Shown piece after piece: positions 11,856 to 30,333 of a DNA stretch of 41,085 nucleotides (the first letter of the stretch is position 1; every line of letters begins with the position of its first letter). The DNA comes from a virus. The position numbers and the translations under genes were made by a program. The stretch spans positions 1 through 41,085 of the IMG/VR virus record IMGVR_UViG_3300019468_000025. The stretch is one strand, 5' to 3'. Under the pieces are notes generated by a model. It saw only the letters and a program-made list of their open reading frames with translations. It had not been told where the DNA came from and ran no database searches.

Positions 11856-12386
11856 ATGAATGAGCTAATACACTTTACTAGTGAAGCATGGAGGACTCTT
11901 ACTGAGTCCTTTGTGCTAAAAACTCTCTTGGCTATCATTGCCGAGGTAGCTATCTATATGCTTGGGTTAAAGCATGTCCAGGTACTAGGTATCTTTATAT
12001 TATTGGTATTCCTAGACCTAATCACAAAATGGGCCGCTATTGGCTACCAGATGCTACTAGACCTAGGTGCAAACCCTGATACACTAAGCGGCTCAGATAA
12101 GTACCTAGCTATACCAGCCGCATGGGGTAAAGGGCTAATTAATTCTAAGCATATGAGAAAGCCTTTTGTTACTAAGGTACTTACCTATTGCCTAGCTACT
12201 GGTGCTGCTTGGTGTTTTGACTTCATGGCCGGTAATTATGCTTTTGCTGTAAACCTTACATGGCTATACCTTGGGTCTGTGGAGTTCCTGTCTATCATGG
12301 AGAATATGCGTGATGGAGGTAATACCACTATAGCTGGCTTATTAGAGCTAGTTCAAGCTAAGATTGACGGTATTTTAAAGAAATGA
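11856..12386 (+). CDS. Holin
   Basis: A 176-aa ORF with several predicted transmembrane segments, immediately upstream of the endolysin. Confidence 0.5.
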   Translation: MNELIHFTSEAWRTLTESFVLKTLLAIIAEVAIYMLGLKHVQVLGIFILLVFLDLITKWAAIGYQMLLDLGANPDTLSGSDKYLAIPAAWGKGLINSKHMRKPFVTKVLTYCLATGAAWCFDFMAGNYAFAVNLTWLYLGSVEFLSIMENMRDGGNTTIAGLLELVQAKIDGILKK

Positions 12387-12394: not shown

Positions 12395-12799
12395 ATGAAA
12401 ATTGGTACTTACTTTGATGATTATGAGTTCTCTTGTAGTTGTTATAGGCATGAGCAAGACGGACAAGGTCATAATGTGTTAGACCACATTATTGATAAGC
12501 GATTGGTGGACTTACTAGACGCTATTCGTGAACGTATTGGCCAACCAATCACAATCAATAGTGGCTATCGTTGTGAGCCTCACAATGAGGAAGTTGGTGG
12601 TGTATCTAACTCCCAACACTGCCTAGGTACAGCCGCAGACATCACATATGATGGTGTTGATGTGGACTACCTAGCACAAGTAGCTGAGGAATGTGGTAGT
12701 GAGCTTGGTATCGAGGGTGGTATTGGCCGATACTATCACCAGGACTTTGTCCATGTTGATGTGAGAGGCTACGAAGCTCGCTGGGACGATTTAGACTAA
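12395..12799 (+). CDS. Endolysin, peptidase M15 (zinc D-Ala-D-Ala carboxypeptidase-like)
   Basis: It carries the SGYRCxxHN...H.xGxAADI...HVD zinc-binding motif pattern. Confidence 0.8.
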   Translation: MKIGTYFDDYEFSCSCYRHEQDGQGHNVLDHIIDKRLVDLLDAIRERIGQPITINSGYRCEPHNEEVGGVSNSQHCLGTAADITYDGVDVDYLAQVAEECGSELGIEGGIGRYYHQDFVHVDVRGYEARWDDLD

Positions 12800-12809: not shown

Positions 12810-13259
12810 ATGTATGAAAACTACATCAAGAAGATTAAATCTACGCTTACTACTAAGCGCCTTATTGCTGGTGCTCTTTGTGTGTTGCTCCTCATTGGTA
12901 TTGGCCAACTCGTCAGAGGTTACCTCACAGCCAGAGCCAACTATAACCGTGCCATTGAGCACTTGGAACGAGCTCAAAGAGAACTCGAAAGAAGCAAGCA
13001 ACTTAATCGAGAGCTCCAGCAAATCATTGAGCGAAGCACAATCCTCAATGACGAAGCAGGGAACAGCATTAACAGAATTGAAGATTATCAACGAAGAACG
13101 GAGCAAGGAATTAGCCGAGCTCAAAGCTATCAACGAGAAGCAAGCGAACGAGTTGAAGAAGGCCTCCATGACGCTCAAAGAGCAAGAGAGCTCATTGAAC
13201 GAAACCTCCAACTCATTGATAGAGTTGAAAGAAGAAATCAAGAAGAGCAAAGCCACTGA
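12810..13259 (+). CDS. Alternative overlapping frame (frame A): N-terminal transmembrane domain plus coiled coil, i-spanin-like architecture
   Basis: It is offset by +1 from frame B. The N-terminal transmembrane segment (LIAGALCVLLLIGIGQLV) shows the T-rich third-position codon bias of the rest of the genome, but the ribosome-binding-site spacing is only 4 nt. Only one of the two frames may be real. Confidence 0.3.
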   Translation: MYENYIKKIKSTLTTKRLIAGALCVLLLIGIGQLVRGYLTARANYNRAIEHLERAQRELERSKQLNRELQQIIERSTILNDEAGNSINRIEDYQRRTEQGISRAQSYQREASERVEEGLHDAQRARELIERNLQLIDRVERRNQEEQSH

Positions 13260-13335
13260 GCAGCGGCTACGGAGACAGCGCAATACTTGGTCCTATCTTA
13301 CTGGTATAACTGTGATTGCGGCAGCAATTAAATAA
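12814..13335 (+). CDS. Membrane-anchored coiled-coil protein (frame B): signal-like N-terminus and C-terminal transmembrane anchor
   Basis: An AGGTG ribosome-binding site lies 8 nt upstream. The N-terminus reads MKTTSRRLNLRLLLSALLLVLFVCCSS, followed by an E/K heptad coiled coil, and the C-terminus (RLRRQRNTWSYLTGITVIAAAIK) looks like a tail anchor. The stop lies about 55 nt before a terminator. Confidence 0.35.
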   Translation: MKTTSRRLNLRLLLSALLLVLFVCCSSLVLANSSEVTSQPEPTITVPLSTWNELKENSKEASNLIESSSKSLSEAQSSMTKQGTALTELKIINEERSKELAELKAINEKQANELKKASMTLKEQESSLNETSNSLIELKEEIKKSKATEQRLRRQRNTWSYLTGITVIAAAIK

Positions 13336-13389
13336 TGTGGAGGTGGTCCACCCATATCTCCAGAGTGTAGTCTGGCGGAACTACACATA

Positions 13390-13423
13390 CCCACTGGCTT
13401 TATAGCTGGTGGGTAATTTTTTT
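13390..13423 (+). terminator. Rho-independent terminator after the lysis module
   Basis: A stem cccactggc/gctggtggg (with G-U pairs) followed by TTTTTTT. A second hairpin (gtgtagt...actacac) precedes it at 13365-13386. Confidence 0.55.
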
Positions 13424-13426
13424 AGA

Positions 13427-13462
13427 TTGACTATTTACAATCTCTAAGATATCTGATAATAA
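13427..13462 (+). promoter_or_regulatory. Early promoter P1 (cTATTTACA-17-TGaTAATAA)
   Basis: A -35 TTTACA at 13434-13439 and a TGn-extended -10 at 13454-13462. Confidence 0.45.
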
Positions 13463-13507
13463 TGTAAGTAATGAATGATAATAATTTCTTTATAGGAGGA
13501 GAAAACA

Positions 13508-13687
13508 ATGAAGAAATTTAAAAACAATGCTTTAAAAGAAGTGCTCATGCGTACGTACTGGGGTAAGATTGGGGAAGTATTAAGAACTGATACTGAATGG
13601 GGTATCAGTGAAGAAGACCTATATGAGAAAGCTATCAATATAGCTAACAGACATCAAACAGAAGCTCTCACAAGAAGAATGAAATAG
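13508..13687 (+). CDS. Small early protein (59 aa), not in the ORF track
   Basis: A GGAGGAG ribosome-binding site precedes it. The protein reads MKKFKNNALKEVLMRTYWGKIGEVLRTDTEWGISEEDLYEKAINIANRHQTEALTRRMK, and the stop is a TAG at 13685-13687. Confidence 0.5.
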   Translation: MKKFKNNALKEVLMRTYWGKIGEVLRTDTEWGISEEDLYEKAINIANRHQTEALTRRMK

Positions 13688-13695
13688 TAAACTAA

Positions 13696-13728
13696 GCAAG
13701 CTTAGGGGATAACCTTCTAAGCTTGCTA
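13696..13728 (+). terminator. Intercistronic hairpin (10-bp perfect stem)
   Basis: Stem gcaagcttag/ctaagcttgc with an 11-nt loop. There is no clear U-tract, so this could be an attenuator or an RNA-processing site. Confidence 0.35.
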
Positions 13729-13754
13729 ATTAATATAAACCGGAGGTAAATACT

Positions 13755-13985
13755 ATGTTCATCAATAGACTATTCAACCAAGCACTAGACTTTACATACA
13801 GACAACTAAGACATGAGTGCGGTCCTATATCAGCTCATTTTGACGGCCACAGCAACTCTAGCTTATATGTGATACATAACCATTACACAAACGAGAAAGC
13901 CGTCTTACGCCGTCAATTTGGCATACCGGGCTCACATCGCCATGTGTTTGGTGAGATACGTAGCAATATTTGGAAAAGATTTTAG
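13755..13985 (+). CDS. Hypothetical early protein (76 aa)
   Basis: A GGAGG ribosome-binding site at the right spacing. Confidence 0.5.
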   Translation: MFINRLFNQALDFTYRQLRHECGPISAHFDGHSNSSLYVIHNHYTNEKAVLRRQFGIPGSHRHVFGEIRSNIWKRF

Positions 13986-13994
13986 AGATTGCTA

Positions 13995-14023
13995 TTTACA
14001 ATTTTCAAGATTTATGGTATAAT
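13995..14023 (+). promoter_or_regulatory. Early promoter P2 (TTTACA-17-TGgTATAAT)
   Basis: A -35 at 13995-14000 and a consensus -10 at 14018-14023 with a TG extension. Confidence 0.65.
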
Positions 14024-14067
14024 GTAATTAATCTAATAAATATGTATTTGATGAAGAGGAGACAATT

Positions 14068-14298
14068 ATGAAAAAGTTCATCAATCAAAAATTCATTAAA
14101 GCTATTAGTGTTGCTGATGACCATATCTGGGTAGAATACCTAGAACAGTATAATGTTGAATTTGAGGAGGTAGACCTAATTTCACAGTATCACTGGGATA
14201 GGAAGGCATGCCGTGAAGCTAAAGCTAATACTCATAAGGTACTACTACGTAGAACACCGGCCACTACCGTACCAACAGGGTATCTTCCATTAATCTAA
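14068..14298 (+). CDS. Hypothetical early protein (76 aa)
   Basis: A GAGGAG ribosome-binding site. Confidence 0.5.
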   Translation: MKKFINQKFIKAISVADDHIWVEYLEQYNVEFEEVDLISQYHWDRKACREAKANTHKVLLRRTPATTVPTGYLPLI

Positions 14299-14307
14299 AG
14301 TTTTCTA

Positions 14308-14336
14308 TTTACATTCTTCTTGATATGTGATATATT
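14308..14336 (+). promoter_or_regulatory. Early promoter P3 (TTTACA-17-TGaTATATT)
   Basis: The -10 is overlapped by a 14-bp perfect inverted repeat at 14322-14359. Confidence 0.5.
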
Positions 14337-14383
14337 ATAAATAAGATATATCACATATCTGGAAGAAATAAATAAGATTACTA

Positions 14384-14412
14384 TTGACACCATCCAAGAT
14401 ATATGATATACT
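14384..14412 (+). promoter_or_regulatory. Early promoter P4 (TTGACA-17-TGaTATACT)
   Basis: A consensus -35 and a TG-extended -10. Confidence 0.55.
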
Positions 14413-14452
14413 ATAATTAATCTAATACTTATATATTCTCAAAGAGGAGACA

Positions 14453-14893
14453 ATGAAAATGAGAAATCTAAAAGCAGAAGAAAAACAATTACTTATCAAC
14501 TTATTCCAATCCGTAGAAGCTGACATGACGCCGGAAGAAAAAGCTAAACATATCTGGCCAGAAGCTCTTAAACAATGCAAAGGTCTCATGTACGCAACTA
14601 AGAAGCAATCCATTGCTTTCCTTGTTGACTGGGCTGACCAACCAGTTGACGAAGTAGAAGAAGCTGTGGAAGACCTTGAAGTACAACTCACAGCAACAGT
14701 AGAACCAGCTACCTCCAACGATAAGGAAGAAGCCATGTTCACTGTGAAAGACCTTGCTGATGAGCTAGGCCTCACACCATACAAAGCACGTGTAGCACTA
14801 CGCAAAGCATTTGGTAAAGCTAAAGGTAGATGGCAATGGTCCACAGAGGAAGCCTACCAAGAAGCAGTAGATGCAATCGGAGGTAACAAATAA
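14453..14893 (+). CDS. Early protein with a C-terminal HTH_17 (AlpA/excisionase-like) DNA-binding motif
   Basis: The C-terminus reads FTVKDLADELGLTPYKARVALRKAFGKAKGRWQWSTEE, and a strong GAGGAG ribosome-binding site precedes the gene. Confidence 0.5.
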   Translation: MKMRNLKAEEKQLLINLFQSVEADMTPEEKAKHIWPEALKQCKGLMYATKKQSIAFLVDWADQPVDEVEEAVEDLEVQLTATVEPATSNDKEEAMFTVKDLADELGLTPYKARVALRKAFGKAKGRWQWSTEEAYQEAVDAIGGNK

Positions 14894-15189
14894 TGTGGAA
14901 ATCTTTTCTAATCGGTTTAATCATAGTGGTAGTGGGCTCTACTACCACTTACATACTCAAACCACGATACAACACTTTACCCGTACAGCACGTAGTGACA
15001 GTACACCAAGGTGATACTTTGCATAGCCTAATCTATAAGCACTATGATGACATCATAGACAAGAGCATTACCATAGACCAAGTAGATTTAATAGACTCAA
15101 CCGTAGTGACGATGAGAGAGAATAATATCACATCATATCTACAACCGGGTCAACGTATTAAAATCTACATCACATATCGCACTAACTAA
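14893..15189 (+). CDS. Membrane-anchored LysM-domain protein
   Basis: An N-terminal transmembrane segment (LIGLIIVVVGSTTTYIL) and a LysM-like core (VHQGDTLHSLIYKHY...LQPGQRIKIYI). Confidence 0.5.
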   Translation: MWKSFLIGLIIVVVGSTTTYILKPRYNTLPVQHVVTVHQGDTLHSLIYKHYDDIIDKSITIDQVDLIDSTVVTMRENNITSYLQPGQRIKIYITYRTN

Positions 15190-15200: not shown

Positions 15201-15236
15201 ACCCACATCATGTATTATGTGATGTGGGTTTTCTTT
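15201..15236. terminator. Bidirectional rho-independent terminator between convergent operons
   Basis: A 10-bp perfect stem acccacatca/tgatgtgggt flanked by T-rich sequence on both strands. Confidence 0.65.
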
Positions 15237-16636
15237 TAGCCAGCTAGTATCTCTCGTAGGTCATCTATCGTATAATCAGCGATGTCTTTCTTATCGAGTA
15301 TCGACTGCCAGAACAGCTCATCTACGGTGTCCTCTGCGATGAGGTATATGTATTTGATCAATCGGGACTGTTGGCCAATACGGTTGATACGGTCACAAGC
15401 CTGTGTGTGGTCTGTGTATGAACGGCCGAGTGAGTAGAAAATCATCGTATGAGCGGCTGTAAGGGTGATTCCTACCCCTCCTGTACTAATTTGTATTACG
15501 ATAACACGGGGCTCCTCTCTCGACTGAAATTGGCTAATGATTTTGCCCCTTATTTTTTTGCTGGTAGCACCTGTGATACACAGGGTCTCTATGCCTACGT
15601 CTTCAAGGGCATCTACGATACCATGAATTTCAGGTATATACTGGGCAAAGATAACTAGCTTCTCTTCACTGTCTTTGACATACTCAACAAGGGCATTGAG
15701 CTTAGCCTTGCTCACCAGGGTAACCTCTCTACCGTTATCACCCTCGGTGGTGAGATAGCCCCCAGCGATTTGGTGACATCGCATACCAACAAGAGCTGGT
15801 ATCGGAGCTGTACTGAACTTACCATCCATTTGTACAATGGCTTCTTTGGCCATCTTCTCATATATCTTACGTGCCTTAGGCTCTAGGGTTACATAGATAT
15901 TCTGACGTACTATTTCTGGTGGTGGTAACTCTTTGACGTCCTTCTTTAACTTCCGGTAAGCATATTTATACACAATGCCCATGAGGTGGTCTAGGTCCTT
16001 ATATTTGCGTGGCCTATTCCACATATCAAGCACAGCATATCTCTCACGGAAGGACTTATAAGTGCAATCAAAGATAGAGCTATCTAGGAAGTTGATTTGT
16101 GAATACAAATCTAATGGATATTTTGTGACCGGTGTGCCGGTTAGAATCGCTTTGAATGGTATACCCTTACCGATACGAGAAGCTGCCTTTGTGGCGTGTG
16201 TATTCCAATTTTTTATCTTGTGTGACTCATCACACACCATAATGTCCGCCTTGTACTTCATCAATCGCACCGATGGCTCCCAGCGTTTATTCTTCTTTTT
16301 GGAGAACTCCCATAGCTTTTCATAATTGACGATGACTATTTCTAGGCAGTTCTTAGGTGATGTACCTAGCTTGTCTAGCTCAACTACATTGTATGGGAAA
16401 GCAGCATGCTCTTTGAGCTGCCTCTCCCAATCATACACCACAGAGAGCGGGCATACTACGATAGCACGGCGAGCGTTATCGTGGTAGAACCGGTAACCCA
16501 TCATGGCTATAGTGGGCAATGTCTTACCGGTACCAGGCTCCATAAACAAAGCAAAGCTAGGTAAATGAATACCTAGCTCATATGCTTCTTTTTGATGTTC
16601 GAGGAATTGCGTCTTTATGATACGTTTTAGCTCCAT
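15236..16636 (-). CDS. SNF2-family helicase
   Basis: Walker A GTGKT, a DESH box, LTGTP, and helicase-C motif VI QACDRINRIGQ. Confidence 0.85.
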   Translation of the reverse strand: MELKRIIKTQFLEHQKEAYELGIHLPSFALFMEPGTGKTLPTIAMMGYRFYHDNARRAIVVCPLSVVYDWERQLKEHAAFPYNVVELDKLGTSPKNCLEIVIVNYEKLWEFSKKKNKRWEPSVRLMKYKADIMVCDESHKIKNWNTHATKAASRIGKGIPFKAILTGTPVTKYPLDLYSQINFLDSSIFDCTYKSFRERYAVLDMWNRPRKYKDLDHLMGIVYKYAYRKLKKDVKELPPPEIVRQNIYVTLEPKARKIYEKMAKEAIVQMDGKFSTAPIPALVGMRCHQIAGGYLTTEGDNGREVTLVSKAKLNALVEYVKDSEEKLVIFAQYIPEIHGIVDALEDVGIETLCITGATSKKIRGKIISQFQSREEPRVIVIQISTGGVGITLTAAHTMIFYSLGRSYTDHTQACDRINRIGQQSRLIKYIYLIAEDTVDELFWQSILDKKDIADYTIDDLREILAG

Positions 16637-17301
16637 GATTGGACTACTCCCATGATATCAGCAATTTCATCCTCACCTTCCCAGCTCCAAGAGCCTTTGT
16701 GATTAGGGTAGAGCTTACGGAGTTGACGGCGGATAACCTTGGCCTCTATACCTAGTTGGTCAGCTAGCTCAGCCAGTGTTAGCTTGTCACCATTACTAGC
16801 AGACTTCTTTTTAGTTTTCTTAGGCTCTGATGCGGTTACATCATCAGCCTTAACCTCTTTTGGCACTATAATCACACGTTTATCTCTTCTGTGAATAGGT
16901 GCTAAGTTTTGGTCTGGTTTATTAGCCGGGTCACGTAGCTCAGCTTCTAATTTAGCTATTGTATCATCAATAAGCTTAGACCGTTCTTCTGCGGAGAGAG
17001 CTCGTTCTTTAATGTGTTTCTTTACCAAAGCTACTGCCTCCTCTGGTGATTCTACAACAGCGGCCATGCCGCCAGAGTCATGAATTTGTTTAATATTATA
17101 TAGTTGATAGTCTGAGGCACCATATTGGCTGGAATCACATTTTACCTCTAAGGCGAAGAATAACCCAGCCACACAACCGAGCAAGTCCGGTATACCTTTT
17201 GTCTGGAATTGAGAGCCATGAATCTTCATCCAGTGGCCCCCAACTTCACGACTTAGTGCCTCAACTATCTTACGTTGTAAGGTAGTTTCTGGCTTTTTCA
17301 T
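16627..17301 (-). CDS. VRR-NUC nuclease fused to a C-terminal HTH_17-like domain
   Basis: The VRR-NUC core reads GIPDLLGC...ALEVKC. The C-terminus reads LTLAELADQLGIEAKVIRRQLRKL...KGSWSWEGED. Confidence 0.55.
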   Translation of the reverse strand: MKKPETTLQRKIVEALSREVGGHWMKIHGSQFQTKGIPDLLGCVAGLFFALEVKCDSSQYGASDYQLYNIKQIHDSGGMAAVVESPEEAVALVKKHIKERALSAEERSKLIDDTIAKLEAELRDPANKPDQNLAPIHRRDKRVIIVPKEVKADDVTASEPKKTKKKSASNGDKLTLAELADQLGIEAKVIRRQLRKLYPNHKGSWSWEGEDEIADIMGVVQSWS

Positions 17302-19981: not shown

Positions 19982-20044
19982 CTAGTCACCTCCTTTCATG
20001 CTTATAATATATCATGTATGATATGTGATGTCAATGGTAAAATT

Positions 20045-22381
20045 CTACGATTTAGAGAGCTCTTTAAGTCTTTTAAAGTTCACTCCGTTGATGTCATCAT
20101 ACACCACTTCACCTGAGCCCCAAGGGCCAGCCTTTACCTCAACGTCTATAGGCACAGTAATTTGTGTCTTAAAGACTTTCTCGATGTGTTCCATATCCGT
20201 CATGATGTCTACAATCACAGGTACCGCTTCCTCTAGATAGTCATTACGTACCTCAAAGAGAATAGCGTCATGGACAGTACCTATAATTTTAACTCTTTCC
20301 ATGTCTAAGGTGTGAGCGATTCTAACCAGAGAGAATATATTGAAATCAGAGCCCAACCCCTGTACAGGTGAGTTTATAGCTTGACGTTCAGCTTCTGCGG
20401 CCAGTTTTTTGTCGCTGCTGTATATATCAGGCAAGTTCCTCTTACGTCCAACTAGGCTCCTTACATACCCATATTTTTTAACAATACGCCTCATGCGGTC
20501 ATGCCATGTAGGTAAGGCAAAGTAGGATTCAAAGAATCTCTGGCGAGTCTCGATAGCTTCTTCCTCGGTGTAATCTACTCCATATTTATCACGGGCATAC
20601 TCACGGAATTTCTTAGCGGACATACCATACAGGAAGCCAAAGTTAACTGCCTTGGCTTTCTTACGTTGGTCCTTTGTGACTTCCTCGAGTGGTACGCCCA
20701 TCACATTGGAGGCAGTCTTCTGGTGTACATCAATACCAGTTTGAAAGCACATTTTTAGTGTTGGGTCACCACTCATGATAGCGGCTATACGTAGCTCAGC
20801 TTGTGAGTAGTCGGCTTCACATAATGTCCAGCCAGGTGGTGCACTAATCAAAGAGCGTACTAGCTTATTACGTGGCACCTGTTGGAGATTAGGGTCCTTG
20901 CAGGAGATACGGCCAGTCACTGTGCCATGCAGTAGGAAAGAAGGGTGTATACGGTTATCAATGCTGACCTCTTTCCACTTGGTAGGGAATTCCAGCAATT
21001 TCTTTTGCTCACGGTAAGACAATAACTCACCAATGATGGGGTGCTGGTCTTTCAACCGTGGTAGCACACTTTCACCATTGGTGCTTGGCTTACCTGATTT
21101 TGTGAGCTCTAATATCGGTAGTCCCATTTCATCATAAAGTAGCTTAGCTAATTGCTGTGAGCTATTCCAATTAATATCATCATGACCAGACAGTTCAGCT
21201 AATGTCTTCAAAGAGGCTTGCATACTACCAGAGAGTTGACTAATCACACTGTCTACTTTGTCTGGGTCTATGTATGCACCATGTAGCTCAACGTCTTCAA
21301 AAGCTCGTGAAGCGGGCATAATAAGCTTGTTAAACAATCTAGCCAAAGGCTTATCAGCCATAAGCTCCTTACGTTGTAAGTGATATAGCCGGAGAGTATA
21401 ATGTACATCATAGGCATTATATTTGGCTAGCTTTCTCATATCTAGCTCATTAGCACCGTGGTCTTCTAAGGCATAACTAGGTGCATTGAGTAATACAGTA
21501 GCCATAGCTTTGAGCCCATTAGGTGTGTTTTCATTCAATAGAGCAGAGGCTAACATGGTATCAAAGGTCTGGTGAAATCTCCAACCCAGTTTGGTATACA
21601 TCATTTTGTTATCAAACTTGCCATTTTGTGCTATCAATTTCTTGCCTTTTGTGACCTGTGAGACCTGCTCTAATATTTTGATAAGGTTTCTATCGTCAGA
21701 GGACCAAGGGGACCCGTCATGGTCAATTGGGATAACCCATTCAGCGCCATCAACGCCTAATCCTAAACAGGTAATTTTGACATCAGGGTCTAGTGGGTTA
21801 AGGCCTGTGGTCTCAATATCATAAGAGATAGCGTCAGCAGCAGCGAGTGACCTAATCATAGCTTTGGCTTTATTAGGTGTATTCACAAGAGTAAAATTAA
21901 GTACATTCTCATCTTCGATACGGCCACCGATGACCTTAGAGAAGGTGTTCCAATGTGCTTTAACAAGCTCCCACTTCTGTGGCTGTCTAAATGTGATTGC
22001 AGGGTCCATGCTGAACATATAGGTCCTATCATCAATAGTAGTATTCATACCAGCATTCTCTGTGATTTTACCTTTACCAAGTATAGCGGTCACAGCCATA
22101 GCACCAATACCAATCACATAATTAAATTTGTCTAATATAGGTACGATACGCTCCTTATATGATTCTTGTATTTGCTTCTTAGGTACCTTCTCAGTGACTA
22201 GCTGCTCACAGATATAGGCCGTAGAACATTCCTCAGGCTCTACACCTAATATGGCTATAAGCTCATTGAGTTGTTTCTTGATTCTACCAGAGAATGGTTT
22301 ACCTGTGGCCTCATCAGAGTAACCAGGTTGACCCCCTAGTATAAGTATATTAGAGCATTTCTTAATATCTAAGTACATCAT
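20045..22381 (-). CDS. Family A DNA polymerase with 3'-5' exonuclease and an N-terminal family-4 UDG-like domain
   Basis: ExoI ISYDIETTG; motif A DYSQAELRIAA; motif B KAKAVNFGFLYGMS; motif C VHDAILFEV. The N-terminus reads ILGGQPGYSDEATGKPFSG, which resembles the UDG-family-4 GEAPG...GxPFxG motif. Confidence 0.85.
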   Translation of the reverse strand: MMYLDIKKCSNILILGGQPGYSDEATGKPFSGRIKKQLNELIAILGVEPEECSTAYICEQLVTEKVPKKQIQESYKERIVPILDKFNYVIGIGAMAVTAILGKGKITENAGMNTTIDDRTYMFSMDPAITFRQPQKWELVKAHWNTFSKVIGGRIEDENVLNFTLVNTPNKAKAMIRSLAAADAISYDIETTGLNPLDPDVKITCLGLGVDGAEWVIPIDHDGSPWSSDDRNLIKILEQVSQVTKGKKLIAQNGKFDNKMMYTKLGWRFHQTFDTMLASALLNENTPNGLKAMATVLLNAPSYALEDHGANELDMRKLAKYNAYDVHYTLRLYHLQRKELMADKPLARLFNKLIMPASRAFEDVELHGAYIDPDKVDSVISQLSGSMQASLKTLAELSGHDDINWNSSQQLAKLLYDEMGLPILELTKSGKPSTNGESVLPRLKDQHPIIGELLSYREQKKLLEFPTKWKEVSIDNRIHPSFLLHGTVTGRISCKDPNLQQVPRNKLVRSLISAPPGWTLCEADYSQAELRIAAIMSGDPTLKMCFQTGIDVHQKTASNVMGVPLEEVTKDQRKKAKAVNFGFLYGMSAKKFREYARDKYGVDYTEEEAIETRQRFFESYFALPTWHDRMRRIVKKYGYVRSLVGRKRNLPDIYSSDKKLAAEAERQAINSPVQGLGSDFNIFSLVRIAHTLDMERVKIIGTVHDAILFEVRNDYLEEAVPVIVDIMTDMEHIEKVFKTQITVPIDVEVKAGPWGSGEVVYDDINGVNFKRLKELSKS

Positions 22382-22797
22382 CTTACCACCTCGATACCAG
22401 CATACACAAGAGTTCTATAACCATTGTGCTTGCCATTGTATTCACTCATAATCACTACTTTCTTTACTCCCGCATTGATAAGTAGCTTAGCACAAGAGTG
22501 ACATGGGCATACAGTCACATAGCATGTAGAGCCTTCGAGAGCGATACCTTTCCGAGCGGCATAGCTAATAGCCGAGGCCTCTGCATGAAGAGCATTAGTA
22601 CAGTGGTGGTCACTGTCTTCTTGACAGCCAACTTCTGTACAATGTGGCATACCAGAGGGAGCACCATTGTAGCCCGTACATACGATTCTACCATCTAGTG
22701 TGAATACTGCCCCAACTTGAAGTTTAGGGCAGGTACCACGTTTGGACACAAGTTGAGCTATTTCTTTGTATAGTTCATCTCGTGCAATTCTTTCCAT
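22378..22797 (-). CDS. dCMP deaminase (cytidine/deoxycytidylate deaminase zinc-binding fold)
   Basis: HAEASAI and CPCHSCAKLL motifs. Confidence 0.8.
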   Translation of the reverse strand: MERIARDELYKEIAQLVSKRGTCPKLQVGAVFTLDGRIVCTGYNGAPSGMPHCTEVGCQEDSDHHCTNALHAEASAISYAARKGIALEGSTCYVTVCPCHSCAKLLINAGVKKVVIMSEYNGKHNGYRTLVYAGIEVVR

Positions 22798-23480
22798 TAG
22801 AATACTCCTTTGATATCCTTAATGAATACATGGAGAGAGCCTATCCAGTGAGTAAATACACCCGGCCTTATTCCAAGCTTTTTAGCTATATGATGTTGCA
22901 TAAGTACGGCTAAATACACATCATTATTGAAATGTGTAGCGAAGTCACTAGAGCGCTGTAGGTAGGTGATATTAAGCTTCCCTTTACGTATTTGGAATTG
23001 ATAACCAAGAGTACAAGGTACACGAGATACACCACCTGTTTTAGTGATATCTTCCGGAGTCCAGACAGACATATAGGCTTGTCGGCTATACATATCATTT
23101 TCAAGGGTAGACACTACACGGTCTATTTGATTGAAGTCACTGATGCGGTCAGGGTAAGTATAACCAAACTTGCCTTCATCGTCTAGGAAATCGTCCCATA
23201 CGTCTTTACGTAGTCTATAGGCTTCACCTGGATTCATGTGCTTACCAGAGATACGCTCCTGGAACTCAGCATCTGCCCATGGCTGTGTTGGTTGCATTTC
23301 AGAAGGGTTACTTGTATCATACACACAGTACATATAGTTCTGGAGCTCCTTAGTGGCCATCTGTGGGTCATCGCCAATATATTTATCTTGGTAGGTTTGT
23401 GTATGTACACCGATACCCATCTCAGCTAAATCACGTCTTACCTCTGAGCGTACTTCTCTAAAATCTTGGTATATTCTCAT
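22797..23480 (-). CDS. Thymidylate-synthase-fold protein (ThyA or dNMP hydroxymethylase family), divergent and short
   Basis: The C-terminal half aligns with the ThyA core (VPCTLGYQFQIRKGKLNITYLQRSSDF...GSLHVF against PCH..QFYV.DGKLSCQLYQRS.D...GD.H.Y). The N-terminal half lacks the ThyA-like TGTGT loop region. Confidence 0.55.
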   Translation of the reverse strand: MRIYQDFREVRSEVRRDLAEMGIGVHTQTYQDKYIGDDPQMATKELQNYMYCVYDTSNPSEMQPTQPWADAEFQERISGKHMNPGEAYRLRKDVWDDFLDDEGKFGYTYPDRISDFNQIDRVVSTLENDMYSRQAYMSVWTPEDITKTGGVSRVPCTLGYQFQIRKGKLNITYLQRSSDFATHFNNDVYLAVLMQHHIAKKLGIRPGVFTHWIGSLHVFIKDIKGVF

Positions 23481-24241
23481 TTGATATATCCTTCTTTCTT
23501 TAATACTTTATAGCAGTAATCTAAATCATCACAATATGAGTAGTAGAATTCATGCATACGTCTTTGGGCACGGAATTTATCCTGGTGCTCTGGGTCAAGA
23601 CTCGCATGGTGACCAATACAGTAAAGCATCTTATGTCTCCAATAGTCATGTGGGCATTTAACCACAAAATCCATAACCTCTTTGGCCGGCATGAATTGAA
23701 ATAGTAAGATAGTGAATAGTCCTTGACTATAGGCAGACCCGAACGTAAAGTCTACATATTGTAGCTCTTTCCCTTTGATAAGTGGCGGTATGATATTATG
23801 ATGGAGCCAATATAGGTCAGCACCGAACTTCTGGATAATCTCAGTAGAACGGTAATTCAGGAATACCCATGCTCTCTTCTTATCTACCACAAGAGTTAAG
23901 TTGTTTAAGCAATACCCTTGGGACTTAGCTCTTTTAGGTTTGTGACCAAAGTCAAATGTCAAGATACTAGCGCCCATATCACTCCTGAGGTCAAGCTTAT
24001 CTAGGAACATTTGATAGCGTTCTTTATCTAAGTAGTTCCGTTCAAGATGTTTTATCTTGCTTTCATTACTACTATAGGATAAGTCCACAAGGTCATGTGA
24101 GCACCCTTCTAGCCAGTCATCACCGGGTATTCTAAATCTATGGCCAATACGTAGCTTCGTGAGCCCCTTTACAATCATGGGCTCCGAGCTATCATAGGCT
24201 AAGTCTTTAATTTGTTGTAGCCAATGTTCCGTAATGTTCAT
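23477..24241 (-). CDS. Hypothetical protein (254 aa) within the nucleotide-metabolism cluster
   Basis: No motif recognised. It is translationally coupled to both neighbours. Confidence 0.5.
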   Translation of the reverse strand: MNITEHWLQQIKDLAYDSSEPMIVKGLTKLRIGHRFRIPGDDWLEGCSHDLVDLSYSSNESKIKHLERNYLDKERYQMFLDKLDLRSDMGASILTFDFGHKPKRAKSQGYCLNNLTLVVDKKRAWVFLNYRSTEIIQKFGADLYWLHHNIIPPLIKGKELQYVDFTFGSAYSQGLFTILLFQFMPAKEVMDFVVKCPHDYWRHKMLYCIGHHASLDPEHQDKFRAQRRMHEFYYSYCDDLDYCYKVLKKEGYIK

Positions 24242-24891
24242 TAGTAGTTACTCCGTTGGCGGAACTTATTGACTTCATTCTTACGGAAATAGAGACCATA
24301 TACCTCTTTGGCTGTGAGACCAGCTCTTACAAGTACAGCAAGTAGCATAAGTAGTGCTTCTTTCATGTAGCCGTAGAACTTGTCTTCATCGGTCATCATT
24401 TGTGATTGTTTCCATGGCTTATTTTTGAGGCAGTTCATAGCAAGACCCACCTTCTCAATGATGTGGTATTCAGTAACCGGCTTCATACCCATCACATATA
24501 AATTTCCTAGGTCCATGAGGTAGACTAATAGGTCAGTTTTTAGACCGTCTGGTCGGTATGATTCAGGGCTAAGACCAGCTAAGATTTGTTGCTCAACCAT
24601 GAAGTGTAGAGCGTCAATCATTTCTTCTAGGTAGTGTTCATAGTGGTCTAACACATCACGTGCCTCAGTGGCTTCTGTGACTTCTTCTGTAATACGCCAA
24701 GCAAAGTCTTTCAATCGTGCTTGACCCTTAGAGTCATGGATATTTACAGGGCAGTCAGGTGTCTGGAGCAAGCCATTACGTTCTTCGATAGGGTGATATT
24801 TCACCATAAGAGCTGCTTGACGTTCGAAGATAGCTTCTAAGTAACCCCCTTGTGGGTAGTCTGTTGGCGCTGTAAAATCATTAATGTTCAT
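24241..24891 (-). CDS. All-alpha NTP pyrophosphatase, dimeric dUTPase/dCTPase-like
   Basis: EEMIDALHFMV and a C-terminal LYFRKNEVNKFRQRSNY resemble dimeric dUTPase motifs (vDiwHFil; YigKNvLNifRQ..GY). Confidence 0.45.
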   Translation of the reverse strand: MNINDFTAPTDYPQGGYLEAIFERQAALMVKYHPIEERNGLLQTPDCPVNIHDSKGQARLKDFAWRITEEVTEATEARDVLDHYEHYLEEMIDALHFMVEQQILAGLSPESYRPDGLKTDLLVYLMDLGNLYVMGMKPVTEYHIIEKVGLAMNCLKNKPWKQSQMMTDEDKFYGYMKEALLMLLAVLVRAGLTAKEVYGLYFRKNEVNKFRQRSNY

Positions 24892-24892
24892 T

Positions 24893-25396
24893 TTAGTGTT
24901 CCTCCAATCTGTCTAGTACACGTTGAGCATCTGGGTCTTTTGTGAAGTCATAATAAATCACATTATCCTTACCCAATAGCTTCTGTGCAGTTCTCATCAA
25001 GTTTCTATATGCTAATAAGCATTTAATGTCGTTCTCTTTGACACCGTCCATCTGTTCACGTTCATGGAATGTACCACGAATAACCTCTATACCTGGGTCA
25101 CAATAGATAACCAACGGATGAGCATCTACTAGCATGAATAGTAAATCTTCTAGGTAGTTGCTGATGTCACTATACCCACGTATGATATTGCCATAGACAG
25201 TCTCACTGAATATAGGGAATCTATCGTAGATTCTGCTGTCAGTGCGAGCTAGCTCATCTTTACACCATTGAACGTGTTCAGCACATGGGCCGGGTGAGAC
25301 TACTACCTCGTGATGAGGTAGGTAGCTCGACAGTTTTTTAACTAAGGTGGACTTACCGGTGTTGTCCATGCCTTCAATGATTATGAGTTTCTTCAT
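24893..25396 (-). CDS. Thymidylate-kinase-like dNMP kinase
   Basis: A P-loop IIIEGMDNTGKST and a DRF..S..VYG motif (the Tmk DRY motif). Confidence 0.65.
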   Translation of the reverse strand: MKKLIIIEGMDNTGKSTLVKKLSSYLPHHEVVVSPGPCAEHVQWCKDELARTDSRIYDRFPIFSETVYGNIIRGYSDISNYLEDLLFMLVDAHPLVIYCDPGIEVIRGTFHEREQMDGVKENDIKCLLAYRNLMRTAQKLLGKDNVIYYDFTKDPDAQRVLDRLEEH

Positions 25397-26116: not shown

Positions 26117-26145
26117 TTATGCTCATATTATATCACCCCGAAAGT
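26117..26145 (-). promoter_or_regulatory. Leftward early promoter (TTTACA-17-TGaTATAAT on the minus strand)
   Basis: On the minus strand the sequence reads ctatttacaaattactttcggggtgatataat. Confidence 0.6.
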
Positions 26146-26176
26146 AATTTGTAAATAGTAAAATTCTACAAAATGA

Positions 26177-26205
26177 TTGACAATTTATAGTAGCATATTT
26201 ATAAT
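26177..26205 (+). promoter_or_regulatory. Rightward early promoter (TTGACA-17-TATAAT)
   Basis: Consensus hexamers with a 17-nt spacer, divergent from the leftward promoter. Confidence 0.65.
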
Positions 26206-26256: not shown

Positions 26257-26427
26257 GTGCTGATAAGTACCAATGAAGTCGCTAAGCGCTATGGTGTAAC
26301 TAATCGCCAGGTGCTATATGCTATTCGTATGAAGAAGATTAAGGGTAAAAAAGTAGGTTGGTCATGGGTGTGTGATACGAGGTATCTACCTGAAAAGTGG
26401 CCCGTTAGAGGTTATAATAATGATTGA
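26257..26427 (+). CDS. Small HTH_17/excisionase-like DNA-binding protein (56 aa, GTG start)
   Basis: An AAGGTGGTGAG ribosome-binding site. The protein reads VLISTNEVAKRYGVTNRQVLYAIRMKKIKGKKVGWSWVC. It is not in the ORF track. Confidence 0.5.
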   Translation: MLISTNEVAKRYGVTNRQVLYAIRMKKIKGKKVGWSWVCDTRYLPEKWPVRGYNND

Positions 26428-29052: not shown

Positions 29053-29429
29053 AGGTATGATGTGATTTACCACCAAGACGCGAGCATAGGCTATAGAGTG
29101 ATATCTATGGCCTATTCTTTTTGCAGTCTTTAGGTAGGTGGTAAAGGTACACTGGGTGGTGTAGTGGGTGAGGTAACGCTCGCATGACCTGAGCGCCAAT
29201 CTTACGACAGGTACGGCATAGTGTACTTGCTGAGATGGCGAAGGTCCAAGTGGCCAAGTCAATTTTGTCCGTGTGCACTGTACATCGCCAGCGCTGGATT
29301 CTGTATTGGCGTCCCATCTTTCATCAGGCTCTAACGGTACTATGCGGTGTCGGAGCGTTTTTTCGAACATATGTAGCAAACAGGATTCGCCCACACTACC
29401 TCCGTAACTTCGCCGCTCATAAAATACAT

Positions 29430-29750
29430 TTTTTCCAAATTTTTCCAAACGATTTGTCCGGGACTCCTCGCCAGCCACATTGATAGCATGAACGCCAGTG
29501 CAGTCACCATTTTGGAAAAAATTTGGAAAAAAATGGAAAACTTTTTCCAAAATATTTTTGGGACTTTCGCCGGCGCACTCCAATAGAGAACGCCACCACA
29601 ATTATGAAATTTTTTGGAAAATTTTTGGAAAAAGACTGGCAAAAATTTTCCAAAACTTTTTCCAAAAATTTTTGGCCTCGAGGACTTAATCACACCAAAG
29701 GCAATTATGAATTTTTCGCACCAGGTCATAATTTTTTTGGAAAAAATGAC
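29430..29750. repeat. Iteron-like array of TTTTCCAAAA / TTTTGGAAAA motifs in both orientations
   Basis: At least 12 copies: 29430-29449 (two direct copies); 29511-29540 (three copies); 29543-29552 (inverted); 29612-29633 (two copies); 29647-29668 (two copies, inverted); 29733-29747 (one copy). Confidence 0.7.
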
Positions 29751-29810
29751 GTATTACTACGTAATACGATATACGTAATTTACGTTACGTATTTCGTACA
29801 TCGTATCAGT
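29748..29810. repeat. Cluster of TACGTA-containing palindromes
   Basis: acgtattac-tac-gtaatacg (8-bp arms) plus tacgtaatttacgttacgta, immediately upstream of promoter P5. Confidence 0.55.
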
Positions 29811-29849
29811 AGTACCCCACCAATCCGTAAACTACGAAGAATTTTCTAT

Positions 29850-29880
29850 TTGACACAAGACCACCCTCATATGCTATAAT
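29850..29880 (+). promoter_or_regulatory. Early promoter P5 (TTGACA-19-TGcTATAAT)
   Basis: It shares the 22-bp upstream element cgaagaattttctatttgacac with P6. Confidence 0.5.
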
Positions 29881-29917
29881 GTGAGCAATGAACTGATGAC
29901 ATAACTAGGAGGATAAA

Positions 29918-30130
29918 ATGGAGACTAAAATTTGTGAACTCTTTAAACCCAAAGGCTTGGTGCAAAACCAACCTGTGATGTACAACCGCCAAAGCAAGTT
30001 TATGAACGCTCGCTGGCTCATTGGTCACTATGCTTGCCAGATAAATGGTGTGGATTATGTGTACCTTGGTGGCCGTACCTCATACACACAAGAAGGCATG
30101 ATTGCTGTTGATGAGGTGATACCACTATGA
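29918..30130 (+). CDS. Small protein, paralog 1
   Basis: A GGAGGA ribosome-binding site. It shares W...HYA...G.DYV..GGRTS.T motifs with the next gene. Confidence 0.5.
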   Translation: METKICELFKPKGLVQNQPVMYNRQSKFMNARWLIGHYACQINGVDYVYLGGRTSYTQEGMIAVDEVIPL

Positions 30131-30333
30131 TTAAGCAACGCAAAATGATACCCCATGACGCTGGCCCTGTACCTGTGAATACACCTGTATTCTACCAACC
30201 GCTCTACTCTGATGTGTGGATACCTGCTCACTACGCCGGTCGCAAAGACGGCAAAGATTATGTGTTCAGCTGTGGGCGTACCTCACACACTACTCGTAGT
30301 GTTGTACCCGTGCGAGAGTGGGTGAAGAAATGA
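30127..30333 (+). CDS. Small protein, paralog 2
   Basis: Translationally coupled (ATGA). The paralogous motif reads IPAHYAGRKDGKDYVFSCGRTSHT. Confidence 0.5.
   Translation: MIKQRKMIPHDAGPVPVNTPVFYQPLYSDVWIPAHYAGRKDGKDYVFSCGRTSHTTRSVVPVREWVKK

Follow-up and report, generated by a model that had tools for sequence, protein, structure and literature searches.

A candidate host-takeover-type accessory module with a variable cassette array in a ~41-kb Veillonella phage

In the early region of phage T7, a unit that ends at a terminator and contains intercistronic hairpins, gp0.4 acts as an inhibitor of cell division. A different kind of accessory unit is the moron, which in the classic definition of Juhala and Hendrix is said to carry its own promoter and terminator and to have a low GC content. 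In Bacillus phage SPO1, genes 37–60 form a host-takeover module (PMC6873191), and acr-aca loci follow the Aca paradigm, in which an HTH-type regulator is accompanied by an inverted repeat at the promoter (PMC9410906, PMC8633003). Small early membrane proteins that inhibit division have precedents in PhiNM1 Gp11 (PMC11237401) and SPO1 gp56 (bioRxiv 10.1101/2020.02.06.938217). In YneA, the SOS-induced division suppressor of Bacillus and Listeria, the transmembrane segment binds FtsW and the LysM domain binds peptidoglycan, and septal peptidoglycan synthesis is blocked in a manner that requires peptidoglycan binding (PMC13396833). Here we describe a 1.8-kb self-contained block of phage DNA that belongs to a known kind, a host-takeover or moron-like accessory module, rather than being unprecedented. 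The reading we favor, with a probability of about 0.5, is that the block is an autonomous host-takeover-type accessory module of a ~41-kb Veillonella phage, composed of a constant core and a variable cassette array.

The window, that is, the whole 41,085-nt stretch of DNA analysed, represents a ~41-kb phage that has genes for a baseplate and a sheath initiator and a replication module of the lytic type (PolA, SNF2, Sak4, and nucleotide-modification genes). Judged from sequence relationships, the host is Veillonella, an abundant commensal of the mouth and the gut, because relatives of the lysis cassette sit as prophages in V. parvula genomes. The relatives that share the lysis cassette alone with the phage are temperate; no integrase, repressor, or partition gene was found among the phage ORFs scanned. 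There was no nucleotide match to the GenBank phages of the INPHARED collection, no characterised relative was found, and a literature search turned up no work on a phage of this kind; the lineage itself is represented by well over a hundred public metagenome contigs. Among the lineage contigs longer than 35 kb that were listed, nearly all measure ~40–42 kb. The exception, a 71-kb scaffold bearing the module, differs in its upstream baseplate module; it was taken for two related phages scaffolded together and was not counted as evidence of integration. In the closest relatives the sequence is circularly permuted and cut at arbitrary points (127-nt overlap). We also considered whether the genome might end, or be packaged from an end, at this locus, as 66 of 80 IMG/VR contigs sharing the endolysin stop within 6 kb downstream, but these contigs are temperate relatives that carry an integrase and CI/Cro after the spanin, so their ends fit prophage boundaries or assembly breaks and the idea was rejected. 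Scans of the window for Rfam families and tRNAs gave no hits.

The block holds four promoter copies in register between two strong terminators (Table 1). T1 (RNA fold −19.4 kcal/mol, z −5.6) is nearly invariant among relatives, and T2, also kept in relatives, has a strong fold on both strands (−21.9 kcal/mol on the plus strand and −19.0 on the minus strand), T2 being common to the block and to the convergent SNF2 helicase/replication operon on the minus strand. A preliminary description of this DNA had seen a promoter-dense cluster of five small genes, wedged between the lysis module and the replication operon and closed by a bidirectional terminator, and this picture is borne out, with T1 and T2 insulating the cluster. 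All five ORFs are present with strong Shine-Dalgarno sites and are under purifying selection (dN/dS 0.15–0.21), including the 59-aa ORF, which independent gene callers find in most relatives. Their dN/dS values are 2–5 times those of endolysin, holin, and SNF2, and they evolve faster than the flanking genes (endolysin 96% identical, SNF2 91%). The GC content is 33% in the array and 33–36% in the block, compared with 42.5% in the genome, and the gene families are confined to one phage lineage. A 140-aa antisense ORF at 14422–14844 was not treated as a gene, as the overlapping plus-strand frame, ORF146, is under purifying selection. The same description had placed each gene behind its own promoter copy, which does not hold. 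The sequence layout predicts three transcription units rather than five, namely P1 with ORF59 and ORF76a, P2 with ORF76b, and the tandem P3/P4 with ORF146 and ORF98, because ORF76a has no promoter of its own (no promoter-like site was found in 13688–13754), ORF98 overlaps the ORF146 stop codon, and P3 and P4 lie in tandem ahead of ORF146. Within the first unit, the hairpin stem between ORF59 and ORF76a is kept in all four ORF59-carrying genomes of a 5-genome alignment.

Table 1. Positions in the window of the promoters, genes, hairpins, and terminators of the block.
Feature	Position	Strand	Description
T1, intrinsic terminator	13388..13425	+	12-bp stem, 6 GC pairs, T7 tail; closes late/lysis operon
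P1	13431..13463	+	−35 TTTACA (13434–13439); −10 AATAAT (13458–13463); 18-nt spacer; 10/12 match
ORF59 (cassette H)	13508..13687	+	SD TAGGAGGAG; small basic protein; dN/dS 0.21 over 12 genomes
Intercistronic hairpin ORF59/ORF76a	13695..13727	+	−20.8 kcal/mol, z −5.8; without U-tract
ORF76a (FIN type A)	13755..13985	+	Basic, pI 10.2; dN/dS 0.15; predicted to be driven by P1
P2	13992..14023	+	TTTACA-17-TGGTATAAT; 11/12 + TG; kept in relatives
ORF76b (FIN type B)	14068..14298	+	dN/dS 0.18; predicted to be driven by P2
P3	14305..14336	+	TTTACA-17-TGATATATT; family D3
Long inverted repeat/hairpin	14314..14367	+	Perfect 14-bp core (14322–14335 / 14346–14359) + 7-bp lower stem
P4	14381..14412	+	TTGACA-17-TGATATACT; 11/12 + TG; tandem with P3
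ORF146	14453..14893	+	dN/dS 0.19; predicted to be driven by P3/P4
ORF98	14893..15189	+	Predicted N-terminal transmembrane segment + LysM-like domain; dN/dS 0.15
T2, hairpin terminator	15201..15229	both	13-bp stem; + tail TTTTCTTTT, − tail UAUUUCUAU

The repeated promoter sequence (family D3) has copies at 13430, 13991, 14304, and 14380, and P2 and P4 additionally have an 83-nt repeat (family D2) in common. That the promoter occurs four times was already known from the preliminary description; the 17-nt spacer holds for P2–P4 and the register for all four copies, whereas P1 departs from the pattern through a 1-nt insertion and its AATAAT hexamer, its counterpart in relatives being a perfect TTTACA-17-TGGTATAAT. 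P2, P3, and P4 read TTTACA/TTGACA-17-TGnTATAAT/TATATT/TATACT and score 10–11 of 12, and the hexamers, the spacer of 17 ± 1 nt, and the TG at −15/−14 are those of a housekeeping-sigma (sigma-70/sigma-A) extended −10 promoter. The 31-nt consensus occurs at 8 sites in the whole window, where 0.30 would be expected; three of the eight are inside the cluster and the other five lie ahead of the replication, primase, and late operons. By their common CTATT[T/G]ACA prefix and TG-extended −10 element, the cluster promoters are of the same class as the replication and primase promoters. Directly after the late promoter at 30964 there is a small terminator, and none such directly follows P1–P4. We infer early timing of the module only from this promoter class and from the insulation, and late transcription, if antiterminated, could read through T1 into the module. 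Each of 15 relatives scanned has 3–5 promoter copies (59 in total, 46 distinct). Over the 15 genomes the hexamers carry 1.86 and 1.77 bits of information, the spacer 1.26, and the flanks 0.85, figures that are partly circular because the scan used a fixed −35/17-nt/−10 pattern, which itself set some positions, hexamers and spacing included.

The variable part of the block is the array ahead of ORF146. In the 33 related ~41-kb genomes whose arrays are complete, it consists of 0–4 cassettes in 8 architectures, chimeric genes included, and falls into length classes of about 212, 531, 785, 1090, and 1400 nt. A cassette (~305–313 nt) is made up of a promoter, a 5'UTR, and a gene of ~60–80 codons, which is either ORF59 or one of the FIN paralogs A–E; the chimeric FIN genes include L102 (A/B), P0131 (A/C), and P0141 (A/D). 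ORF76b is the last cassette in 29 of the 33 arrays and is missing from the two zero-cassette genomes and from the C-D and H-A arrays, and the gene content of the block differs between otherwise near-identical genomes. Behind the array, ORF146 and ORF98 remain as a constant core. The range of cassette numbers, the eight architectures, and the chimeras point to the repeated promoters being duplication units, a by-product of cassette duplication.

Alignment shows ORF76a and ORF76b to be paralogs within a family restricted to this lineage, here called FIN, with an invariant F-I-N..F ... N...VL.R....P pattern in common. ORF59, which exists in two allelic forms and is missing from some genomes, is related to this family through its N-terminal 26 residues (hhalign probability 71%, E 3.7e-5). 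The charge of FIN proteins spans a wide range (pI 4.3–10.2), type C being very acidic with a pI of 4.3. The AF2 model of ORF76b is a helical hairpin (pLDDT 68) and gave generic helical-hairpin matches in Foldseek, all with E > 4. Searches of Pfam, PHROGs, PADLOC, and NCBIfam returned chance-level matches only and no function for ORF59, ORF76a, or ORF76b; none of the cluster proteins showed homology to defence or anti-defence proteins in PADLOC, Pfam, or PHROGs. Relatives of FIN and of ORF98 were found in the same lineage and in no other phage group.

Close inspection of the core gave a clearer picture of ORF98, which is translationally coupled to ORF146 by a stop/start overlap (TAATG). It occurs as two alleles of 98 and 87 aa, 41–47% identical, in both of which the N-terminus is hydrophobic (FLIGLIIVVVG / ILAILAIAAGVYF) and a LysM-like motif, GDTL...PGQRI, is present. 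Against Pfam LysM (PF01476) the alleles score 15.5 and 15.8 bits (E 0.017 and 0.014), below the 20.9-bit cutoff, and match opposite ends of the model; sequence matches in the PDB are weak and are to LysM proteins. The NCBIfam model of YneA (NF010723) gives 21.9 bits (E 1.2e-4), below its curated 60-bit cutoff, and is matched at E ≤ 0.01 by 19 of 19 family members (best E 7.3e-6) over residues 4–91 of the protein and positions 5–84 of the 87 in the model. The membrane LysM protein of the preliminary description is thereby sharpened to a YneA-like combination of transmembrane segment and LysM likeness, with the Pfam LysM match itself staying sub-threshold; the superinfection exclusion proposed for it found no specific support. 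Like YneA, ORF98 has ~90–100 residues, with one predicted N-terminal transmembrane segment and a predicted extracytoplasmic LysM-like domain. In contrast to YneA, it has helices 1 and 2 of the LysM-like region joined by a longer loop, is encoded by a phage, is co-translated with an HTH-like protein, and lacks an upstream LexA/SOS box (CGAAC-N4-GTTCG), none being found in the cluster. The cell envelope differs as well, as Veillonella is a diderm and YneA has been characterised in monoderms. The analogy makes it most likely that ORF98 attaches to peptidoglycan and stops host cells from dividing by blocking wall synthesis at the septum, although the YneA match may reflect only a common architecture of transmembrane segment and LysM domain.

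Translation of ORF146 probably starts at the ATG at 14459 rather than at 14453, because the Shine-Dalgarno spacing is then 9 nt instead of 3 nt and the first ATG is missing in relatives. The protein consists of an acidic helical N-domain, a disordered acidic linker (residues ~65–93), and a basic winged-helix-like 'GRWxW' C-domain (residues 94–146). In the AF2 model (overall pLDDT 66), the C-domain has the order strand-helix-helix-strand-helix at a pLDDT of ~70–84, and its top Foldseek matches are winged HTH domains of the MerR type (pSK1 Par DNA-binding domain, probability 0.92, E 0.76; RacA, BldC, and NmlR), none of them at E ≤ 0.001. Structure prediction, which had been put forward as a check, thus yielded models of moderate confidence for ORF146 and ORF76b but no significant fold match. 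The protein had also been called HTH_17-tailed; Pfam HTH_17 (PF12728) has no match at E ≤ 1 in either allele and, of the 17 remote C-domain relatives, matches only 2 (best E 1.7e-5), which leaves a weak fold-level likeness to MerR-type winged helices. We regard ORF146 as a candidate DNA-binding protein. The N-domain has no relatives besides P0173 and P0174, low-complexity repeat proteins whose matches were judged spurious. The C-domain shares 36% identity with the C-terminal end of a VRR-NUC-like ORF at 16627–17301 and constitutes the body of a 73-aa ORF at 30613–30834; elsewhere it terminates a SNF2 helicase of another phage, P0186, and in another phage it stands alone as a gene flanked by DUF669 and SNF2.

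In the host-takeover reading, the host RNA polymerase would probably read the module through its near-consensus housekeeping-sigma promoters with TG-extended −10 elements, with T1 separating it from the late/lysis operon and T2 from the replication operon that converges on it. P3 and P4 would drive ORF146, with its winged-helix-like putative DNA-binding domain, together with the coupled ORF98, a predicted single-pass membrane protein with a periplasmic LysM-like domain that would, by the YneA analogy, block host cell division. The FIN proteins and ORF59 would be small cytoplasmic helical-hairpin proteins of very different charge, each probably binding a different, putative host target. The array would expand, contract, and shuffle through homologous recombination, with the repeated promoter, 5'UTR, and first codons (MKKFIN/MFIN) as the sites of exchange, which would explain why the promoter looks repeated. 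As in the SPO1 module and the T7 class I early region, very small, mostly orphan genes are densely packed behind several strong host-RNA-polymerase promoters and strong ribosome-binding sites, and a division inhibitor is included (the membrane protein gp56 in SPO1 and gp0.4 in T7), a role that ORF98 would have here by analogy only. Unlike in these systems, promoters and genes alternate here in the form of duplicated cassettes, and the genes form a paralog family of variable copy number; no cluster protein has sequence or fold homology to SPO1 or T7 early proteins.

An acr-aca-type anti-defence locus is conceivable but unlikely. In such a locus, ORF59 and the FIN cassettes would inhibit host immunity in combinations suited to the defences of each strain, and ORF146 would be an Aca-like regulator damping the promoters via the palindrome at P3. 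As in acr-aca loci, variable small orphan genes with strong promoters lie directly upstream of a conserved HTH-type gene (0–4 cassettes before ORF146 in 33 genomes), and an inverted repeat overlaps a promoter. Each paralog type is under purifying selection, yet its presence differs between near-identical genomes, and within the wide charge range of the family the acidic type C could be a DNA mimic. However, the only inverted repeat sits at P3, ORF146's own promoter, downstream of the cassettes, where its 21 bp overlap the spacer and the −10 element (RNA fold z −5.2). A pattern test finds it in 30 of the 33 complete arrays, a variant form is kept in the two zero-cassette genomes, and it is absent only from c405, which carries cassettes; the palindrome travels with ORF146 and not with the cassettes. 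In addition, ORF146 is not the last gene of a cassette operon but has promoters of its own, its HTH-like domain is MerR/excisionase-like and common to replication proteins, and recurrence of the C-domain on replication and recombination proteins (VRR-NUC, SNF2) is atypical for Aca proteins. No Acr/Aca homology and no PADLOC-related or Acr-like matches were found. The changes in the palindrome stem are G.U-compatible, which favors an RNA hairpin over an operator: in 11 variants 98.3% of cells are paired, with an A-U / G.U / G-C series at one pair. Covariation is too sparse to count the palindrome as a proven RNA structure, as 147 of 500 shuffles reach the observed value, which is not significant, and a terminator was rejected because no U-tract follows the palindrome.

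The host-takeover reading could be taken further, to a recombination-driven 'cassette shuffler', although we consider this extension quite unlikely. The array would then give the phage population a repertoire of inhibitors, directed at the host or its defences and matched to the diversity of Veillonella strains, accompanied by a YneA-like division blocker, with the P3 hairpin setting the dosage of the core at the RNA level. The promoter, the 5'UTR, and the N-terminal (MKKFIN) and C-terminal (VLxRR..P) scaffold would allow phages to swap, duplicate, delete, and hybridise small helical-hairpin effectors that differ in their surfaces, and the hairpin would act on the processing or stability of read-through transcripts.

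We also compared the block with lambdoid morons (HK97, lambda bor/lom), which it resembles in being an autonomous promoter-gene-terminator unit of lower GC content just past the lysis cassette. It could be a moron or superinfection-exclusion block from temperate ancestors, a constitutive accessory unit in which ORF98, as a predicted envelope protein, would exclude other phages at the envelope. Temperate Veillonella relatives have the same architecture in the slot after the lysis genes, where the spanin is followed by a terminator, a separate promoter, small plus-strand genes, and the integrase. The block likewise has its own promoters and terminators between conserved modules and a deviant composition, but its carrier does not appear to be temperate: the lineage has no recognisable lysogeny genes among the ORFs scanned, nearly all of its long contigs listed are of similar length, and none of the cluster genes was found in the temperate relatives. 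A multi-cassette array instead of a single gene is a further difference, and we consider this origin very doubtful. The least likely proposal is that the core (ORF146 alone or together with ORF98) serves the neighboring replication/recombination module instead of acting on the host, the GRWxW domain tethering proteins to phage DNA that is possibly base-modified; the other proteins with this domain and the adjoining SNF2 helicase speak for it, but ORF146 lies on the strand opposite to the replication operon with its own promoters and T2 in between, is coupled to a membrane protein, and has an N-domain without any relatives.

The module does not overturn the current understanding, and it provides a documented example of how phage accessory regions assemble and diversify. 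The 'GRWxW' winged-helix-like domain emerges as a portable unit that ORF146 has in common with a nuclease, a helicase, and further phage proteins. FIN is a new family of small proteins whose natural presence and absence, paralog swaps, and chimeras offer a ready set of genetic variants with which host targets or defence systems could be sought. If ORF98 is a phage YneA-like protein, a phage of a diderm Firmicute would join the cases in which septal wall synthesis is inhibited through FtsW.

The five small open reading frames at 13427-15189 (ORF59, ORF76a, ORF76b, ORF146 and ORF98, named for their lengths in residues) are real genes, with dN/dS values of 0.21, 0.15, 0.18, 0.19 and 0.15, respectively, and a GGAGG-type Shine-Dalgarno sequence ahead of each. 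The corresponding dN/dS values for endolysin, holin and SNF2 helicase are 0.04-0.07. The anatomy given in the preliminary description is likewise real and beyond chance, except that its placement of each gene behind its own promoter copy was wrong: ORF76a lacks a promoter, ORF98 and the ORF146 stop codon overlap, and P3 and P4 lie in tandem, which gives three transcription units. The start of ORF146 is most likely at 14459. Both bounding terminators, T1 and T2, consist of a strong hairpin and a U-tract, T2 folding on the minus strand as well, and a 14-bp hairpin lacking a U-tract lies between ORF59 and ORF76a. The module exactly fills the gap from the end of the lysis cassette to the 3' end of the convergent helicase gene.

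Searches with the SNF2 helicase, endolysin and ORF146 as queries retrieved five IMG/VR contigs, four of which carry most of the cluster. With ORF146, over 150 protein clusters were retrieved as well, each at least 72% identical and mainly on metagenome contigs of about 41 kb, and 44 loci from the ORF146-matching contigs served as the comparison set. The region between T1 and ORF146 is an array of cassettes, each a promoter, a 5'UTR and one small gene, and falls into length classes of about 212, 531, 785, 1090 and 1400 nt. With H denoting the ORF59 cassette, A ORF76a, B ORF76b and C and D further gene types, the 33 complete arrays show eight architectures: H-A-B, the type of the window (12 genomes), H-A-C-B (7), B (5), H-C-B (4), no cassette (at least 2), and C-D, H-(A/B chimera) and H-A (1 each). 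Cassette content differs among genomes whose ORF146 protein is identical, and the array has a GC content of 33% versus 42.5% for the genome. The constant core consists of P3-hairpin-P4, ORF146, ORF98 and T2, with one genome having a single promoter. Every cassette carries its own promoter copy save the one after ORF59, with three to five copies in each of 15 genomes scanned with the promoter pattern and two in both complete zero-cassette loci. Because the promoters move with the cassettes, the repeated promoter is the signature of cassette duplication.

Alignments place ORF76a and ORF76b, which are paralogs, in one family with types C, D and E of the relatives, which we call FIN. Its invariant residues are an N-terminal F-I-N-x-x-F and, near the C-terminus, N-x3-V-L-x-R-x(n)-P; the first 26 residues of ORF59 are shared with the family (hhalign probability 71%), and the members' net charges extend from +5 in type A to -11 in type C. 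Chimeric A/C (P0131), A/D (P0141) and A/B (locus L102) proteins show recombination within the conserved coding segments at the 5' and 3' ends. An AF2 model of ORF76b (pLDDT 68) is a two-helix hairpin (H7-28, H37-62) with a disordered tail, for which Foldseek returned nothing meaningful. The conserved residues at the two chain ends are adjacent in this model, in which the variable part would be the loop-proximal half of the hairpin. Word-index searches and pattern scans found no relatives of the module's protein families beyond this phage lineage.

A repeat search confirmed the repeated promoter itself, locating a ~29-49-nt element four times, in register, at 13430, 13991, 14304 and 14380. P2, P4, P1 and P3, in that order, are the four best plus-strand sites of the promoter scan at 12-17 kb. 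The 31-nt promoter consensus matches eight sites in the window against 0.30 expected, five of them outside the cluster and three of these five being promoters of known operons; the module "repeat" is therefore partly just the phage's standard strong promoter. The cluster copies have far more in common: the shared stretch reaches 83 nt and takes in the 5'UTR motif TAATTAATCTAATA, the Shine-Dalgarno sequence and the first codons. A second repeated promoter family, GAAGAATTTTCTATTTGACAC...TATAATGTGAGCA, occurs at 29830-29885 and 30518-30570, upstream of terS, where it precedes small unannotated ORFs in two groups, at 29918-30500 and at 30613-30834. The non-coding stretch 29400-29760, which precedes the promoter at 29843, is dense in direct and inverted TTTTTCCAAA / TTTGGAAAAA motifs, an iteron-like array that may represent an origin of replication or a packaging site.

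Features of the module and of related sites in the window
Feature	Position	Strand	Remarks
T1	13388-13415		bounding terminator
P1		+	TTTACA-18-AATAAT (promoter scan)
P2		+	TTTACA-17-TATAAT, with TG (promoter scan)
P3		+	TTTACA-17-TATATT, with TG (promoter scan)
P4		+	TTGACA-17-TATACT, with TG (promoter scan)
P3 hairpin	14322-14335 / 14346-14359		perfect 14-bp inverted repeat plus 7-bp lower stem; overlaps P3 spacer and -10
T2	15201-15229		bounding terminator
Promoter site, replication operon	26127-26157	-	31-nt consensus
Promoter site ahead of 73-aa gene	30533	+	31-nt consensus
Promoter site, late operon	30962	+	31-nt consensus
Site inside replication operon, between PolA and exonuclease gene	20006-20036	-	31-nt consensus
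Match inside plus-strand structural region	40397-40427	-	31-nt consensus
Primase-operon promoter	26177-26205	+	generic promoter scan, separate from 31-nt consensus matches
Late (terS-to-lysis) promoter	30964-30992		TTGACA-17-TGATATGAT
Small U-tract hairpin/terminator	30999-31014		directly after late promoter; -9.9 kcal/mol, z -2.7
Holin	11856-12386	+
M15 endolysin	12395-12799	+
Two overlapping spanin frames	12810-13335	+
Replication/recombination operon	26070 down to 15236	-
GRWxW domain, ORF146 C-terminus	14732-14890	+
GRWxW domain, VRR-NUC-like nuclease C-terminus	16627-16797	-	36% identity to ORF146 C-domain
GRWxW domain, 73-aa ORF	30613-30834	+

A pattern test found the P3 hairpin in 30 of the 33 complete arrays; both zero-cassette genomes have a variant form, and only one genome (c405) lacks it. 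Across 11 sequence variants 98.3% of cells pair, with one pair occurring in A-U, G.U and G-C states and two others alternating between Watson-Crick and G.U, and the covariation was not significant in a shuffling control (147/500). We rejected a role as terminator, as no U-tract follows. A transcript started at P3 holds the 3' arm only, so any RNA role would fall to read-through transcripts from upstream; alternatively, the inverted repeat could be an operator. The motif in the arm of the P3 hairpin, ATCACATATC, recurs in the spacer of the minus-strand promoter at 20006-20036, a site that has a palindrome of 7 bp (ATATCAT-AC-ATGATAT) as well. Words like GATATGTGATAT are overrepresented across the window, with 15 found versus 6.4 expected.

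The HTH_17 label given earlier to ORF146 was not borne out, as the protein has no Pfam HTH_17 match. Its AlphaFold2 model (pLDDT 66, 35-sequence alignment) has three parts: a helical N-domain (8-80), a disordered acidic linker and a C-terminal strand-helix-helix-strand-helix unit. The nearest Foldseek neighbours of this unit are MerR-type winged-helix proteins, namely pSK1 Par (probability 0.92, E 0.76), RacA, BldC and NmlR, a modelled likeness that is suggestive and not significant. The acidic N-domain is an orphan. The C-domain, with the motif T-V-K-D-L-A-x-E-L-G-x-x-P-x-x-x-R-x-x-L-R-K...G-R-W-x-W, turned up, in an exhaustive HMMER search, in 15 further small proteins and as the C-terminal end of a SNF2 helicase of 865 aa. 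This GRWxW domain of about 50 residues occurs three times in the window, with the pattern TxxxLAxxLGxxPxxxRxxLRK...GRWxW; other phages carry it fused to SNF2 helicases or Rho_N-like domains and, in one, as a standalone gene between DUF669 and SNF2. Its recurrence on nuclease, SNF2 and standalone genes makes it a portable module tied to replication and recombination proteins, which is probably DNA-binding. The primase operon begins with a 56-aa excisionase-like HTH ORF (26257-26427; sub-threshold TIGR01764 match, E 0.0036).

ORF98 had been described as a membrane LysM protein. Pfam LysM stays below threshold for both alleles (98 and 87 aa), which match opposite ends of the model and share 41-47% identity between flanking genes that are 91-96% identical. 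What stands is a full-length match of the window protein to the NCBIfam YneA model (NF010723; E 1.2e-4), a model that every one of the 19 members of the family matches (E<=0.01, with 7.3e-6 the best), although far under its 60-bit equivalog cutoff. YneA, of about 100 residues with one transmembrane segment and an extracellular LysM domain, stops septal peptidoglycan synthesis through contact of its transmembrane segment with FtsW, and its action requires peptidoglycan binding by the LysM domain (PMC13396833). PhiNM1 Gp11 (PMC11237401) and SPO1 gp56 (bioRxiv 10.1101/2020.02.06.938217) are small division-inhibiting membrane proteins made as early or host-takeover products. Because of these model matches, the YneA mechanism and the two phage precedents, we read ORF98 by analogy as probably YneA-like in architecture and in action, without filing it as a member of the YneA family.

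The window (41,085 bp) represents a whole phage genome or almost all of one, with no nucleotide match among 50,697 GenBank phage records. Its plus strand runs from the primase operon (26372) through terS/terL/portal (from 31028) and past the window end to tail/baseplate and lysis genes. The minus-strand operon encodes SNF2 helicase, a VRR-NUC-like nuclease, a DUF669/SSB-like protein, Sak4, exonuclease and PolA, together with dCMP deaminase, a ThyA-like protein, NTP pyrophosphohydrolase and dNMP kinase. These nucleotide genes, with a 254-aa protein and the pyrophosphohydrolase as NTP pyrophosphohydrolase/dUTPase_2, lie beside PolA at 22378-25396 and 20045-22381 on the minus strand, a set like that found in phages with replaced or hypermodified thymidine; PolA of relatives has a weak UDG-like N-terminal match. 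The 173-aa spanin product (12810-13335) has a lipoprotein-like N-terminal signal (LVLFVCC) and a C-terminal transmembrane segment, resembling a unimolecular spanin, and a 149-aa ORF with an N-terminal transmembrane segment overlaps it out of frame.

Integrase, repressor and partition genes were absent among the ORFs scanned in the window. A far larger set of phages shares only holin, endolysin and spanin with it, at 75-85% identity; these (L010-L085 from IMG/VR, L091-L095 from Veillonella genomes) are temperate phages or prophages with integrase and CI/Cro after the spanin, which is why 66 of 80 such contigs stop at most 6 kb downstream of the endolysin. The pile-up of contig ends was rejected as a property of the window phage. 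The host is Veillonella: genomes of this genus, two of them V. parvula, carry lysis-cassette copies (74-93% identical, one further at 55%). The temperate relatives fill the slot alike, with a terminator, then their own promoter and small plus-strand genes, and comparison of temperate and lytic-type genomes, which have the lysis cassette in common, indicates clear module mosaicism. A 71,000-bp ENA scaffold (L108) has the same module and replication operon with another baseplate set upstream (YQBQ, DUF2577, Mu Gp48-like), and probably either joins two related phages in one scaffold or reflects a swap of the tail module.

Early expression of the module, though not proven by the sequence itself, is favoured on three grounds: it shares its promoter class with the replication and primase operons, it is insulated by T1 and T2, and a terminator directly follows the late promoter. 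The last arrangement suggests Q-like antitermination control of the late genes only, under which late transcription might also pass T1 by read-through. The module is best explained as an insulated accessory or host-takeover-type unit, probably transcribed by host polymerase, in which a recombining array of paralogous mini-gene cassettes precedes a conserved operon whose products are a winged-helix-like protein and a membrane protein of YneA-like type. It is possible that the unit serves anti-defence in the manner of acr-aca loci, acts as a moron/exclusion module, or is accessory to replication, and these readings are not mutually exclusive. Early clusters of SPO1 and T7, morons and acr-aca loci are known systems of this kind; novelty lies in the protein families, in the dynamics of the cassettes and in the YneA-like lead.
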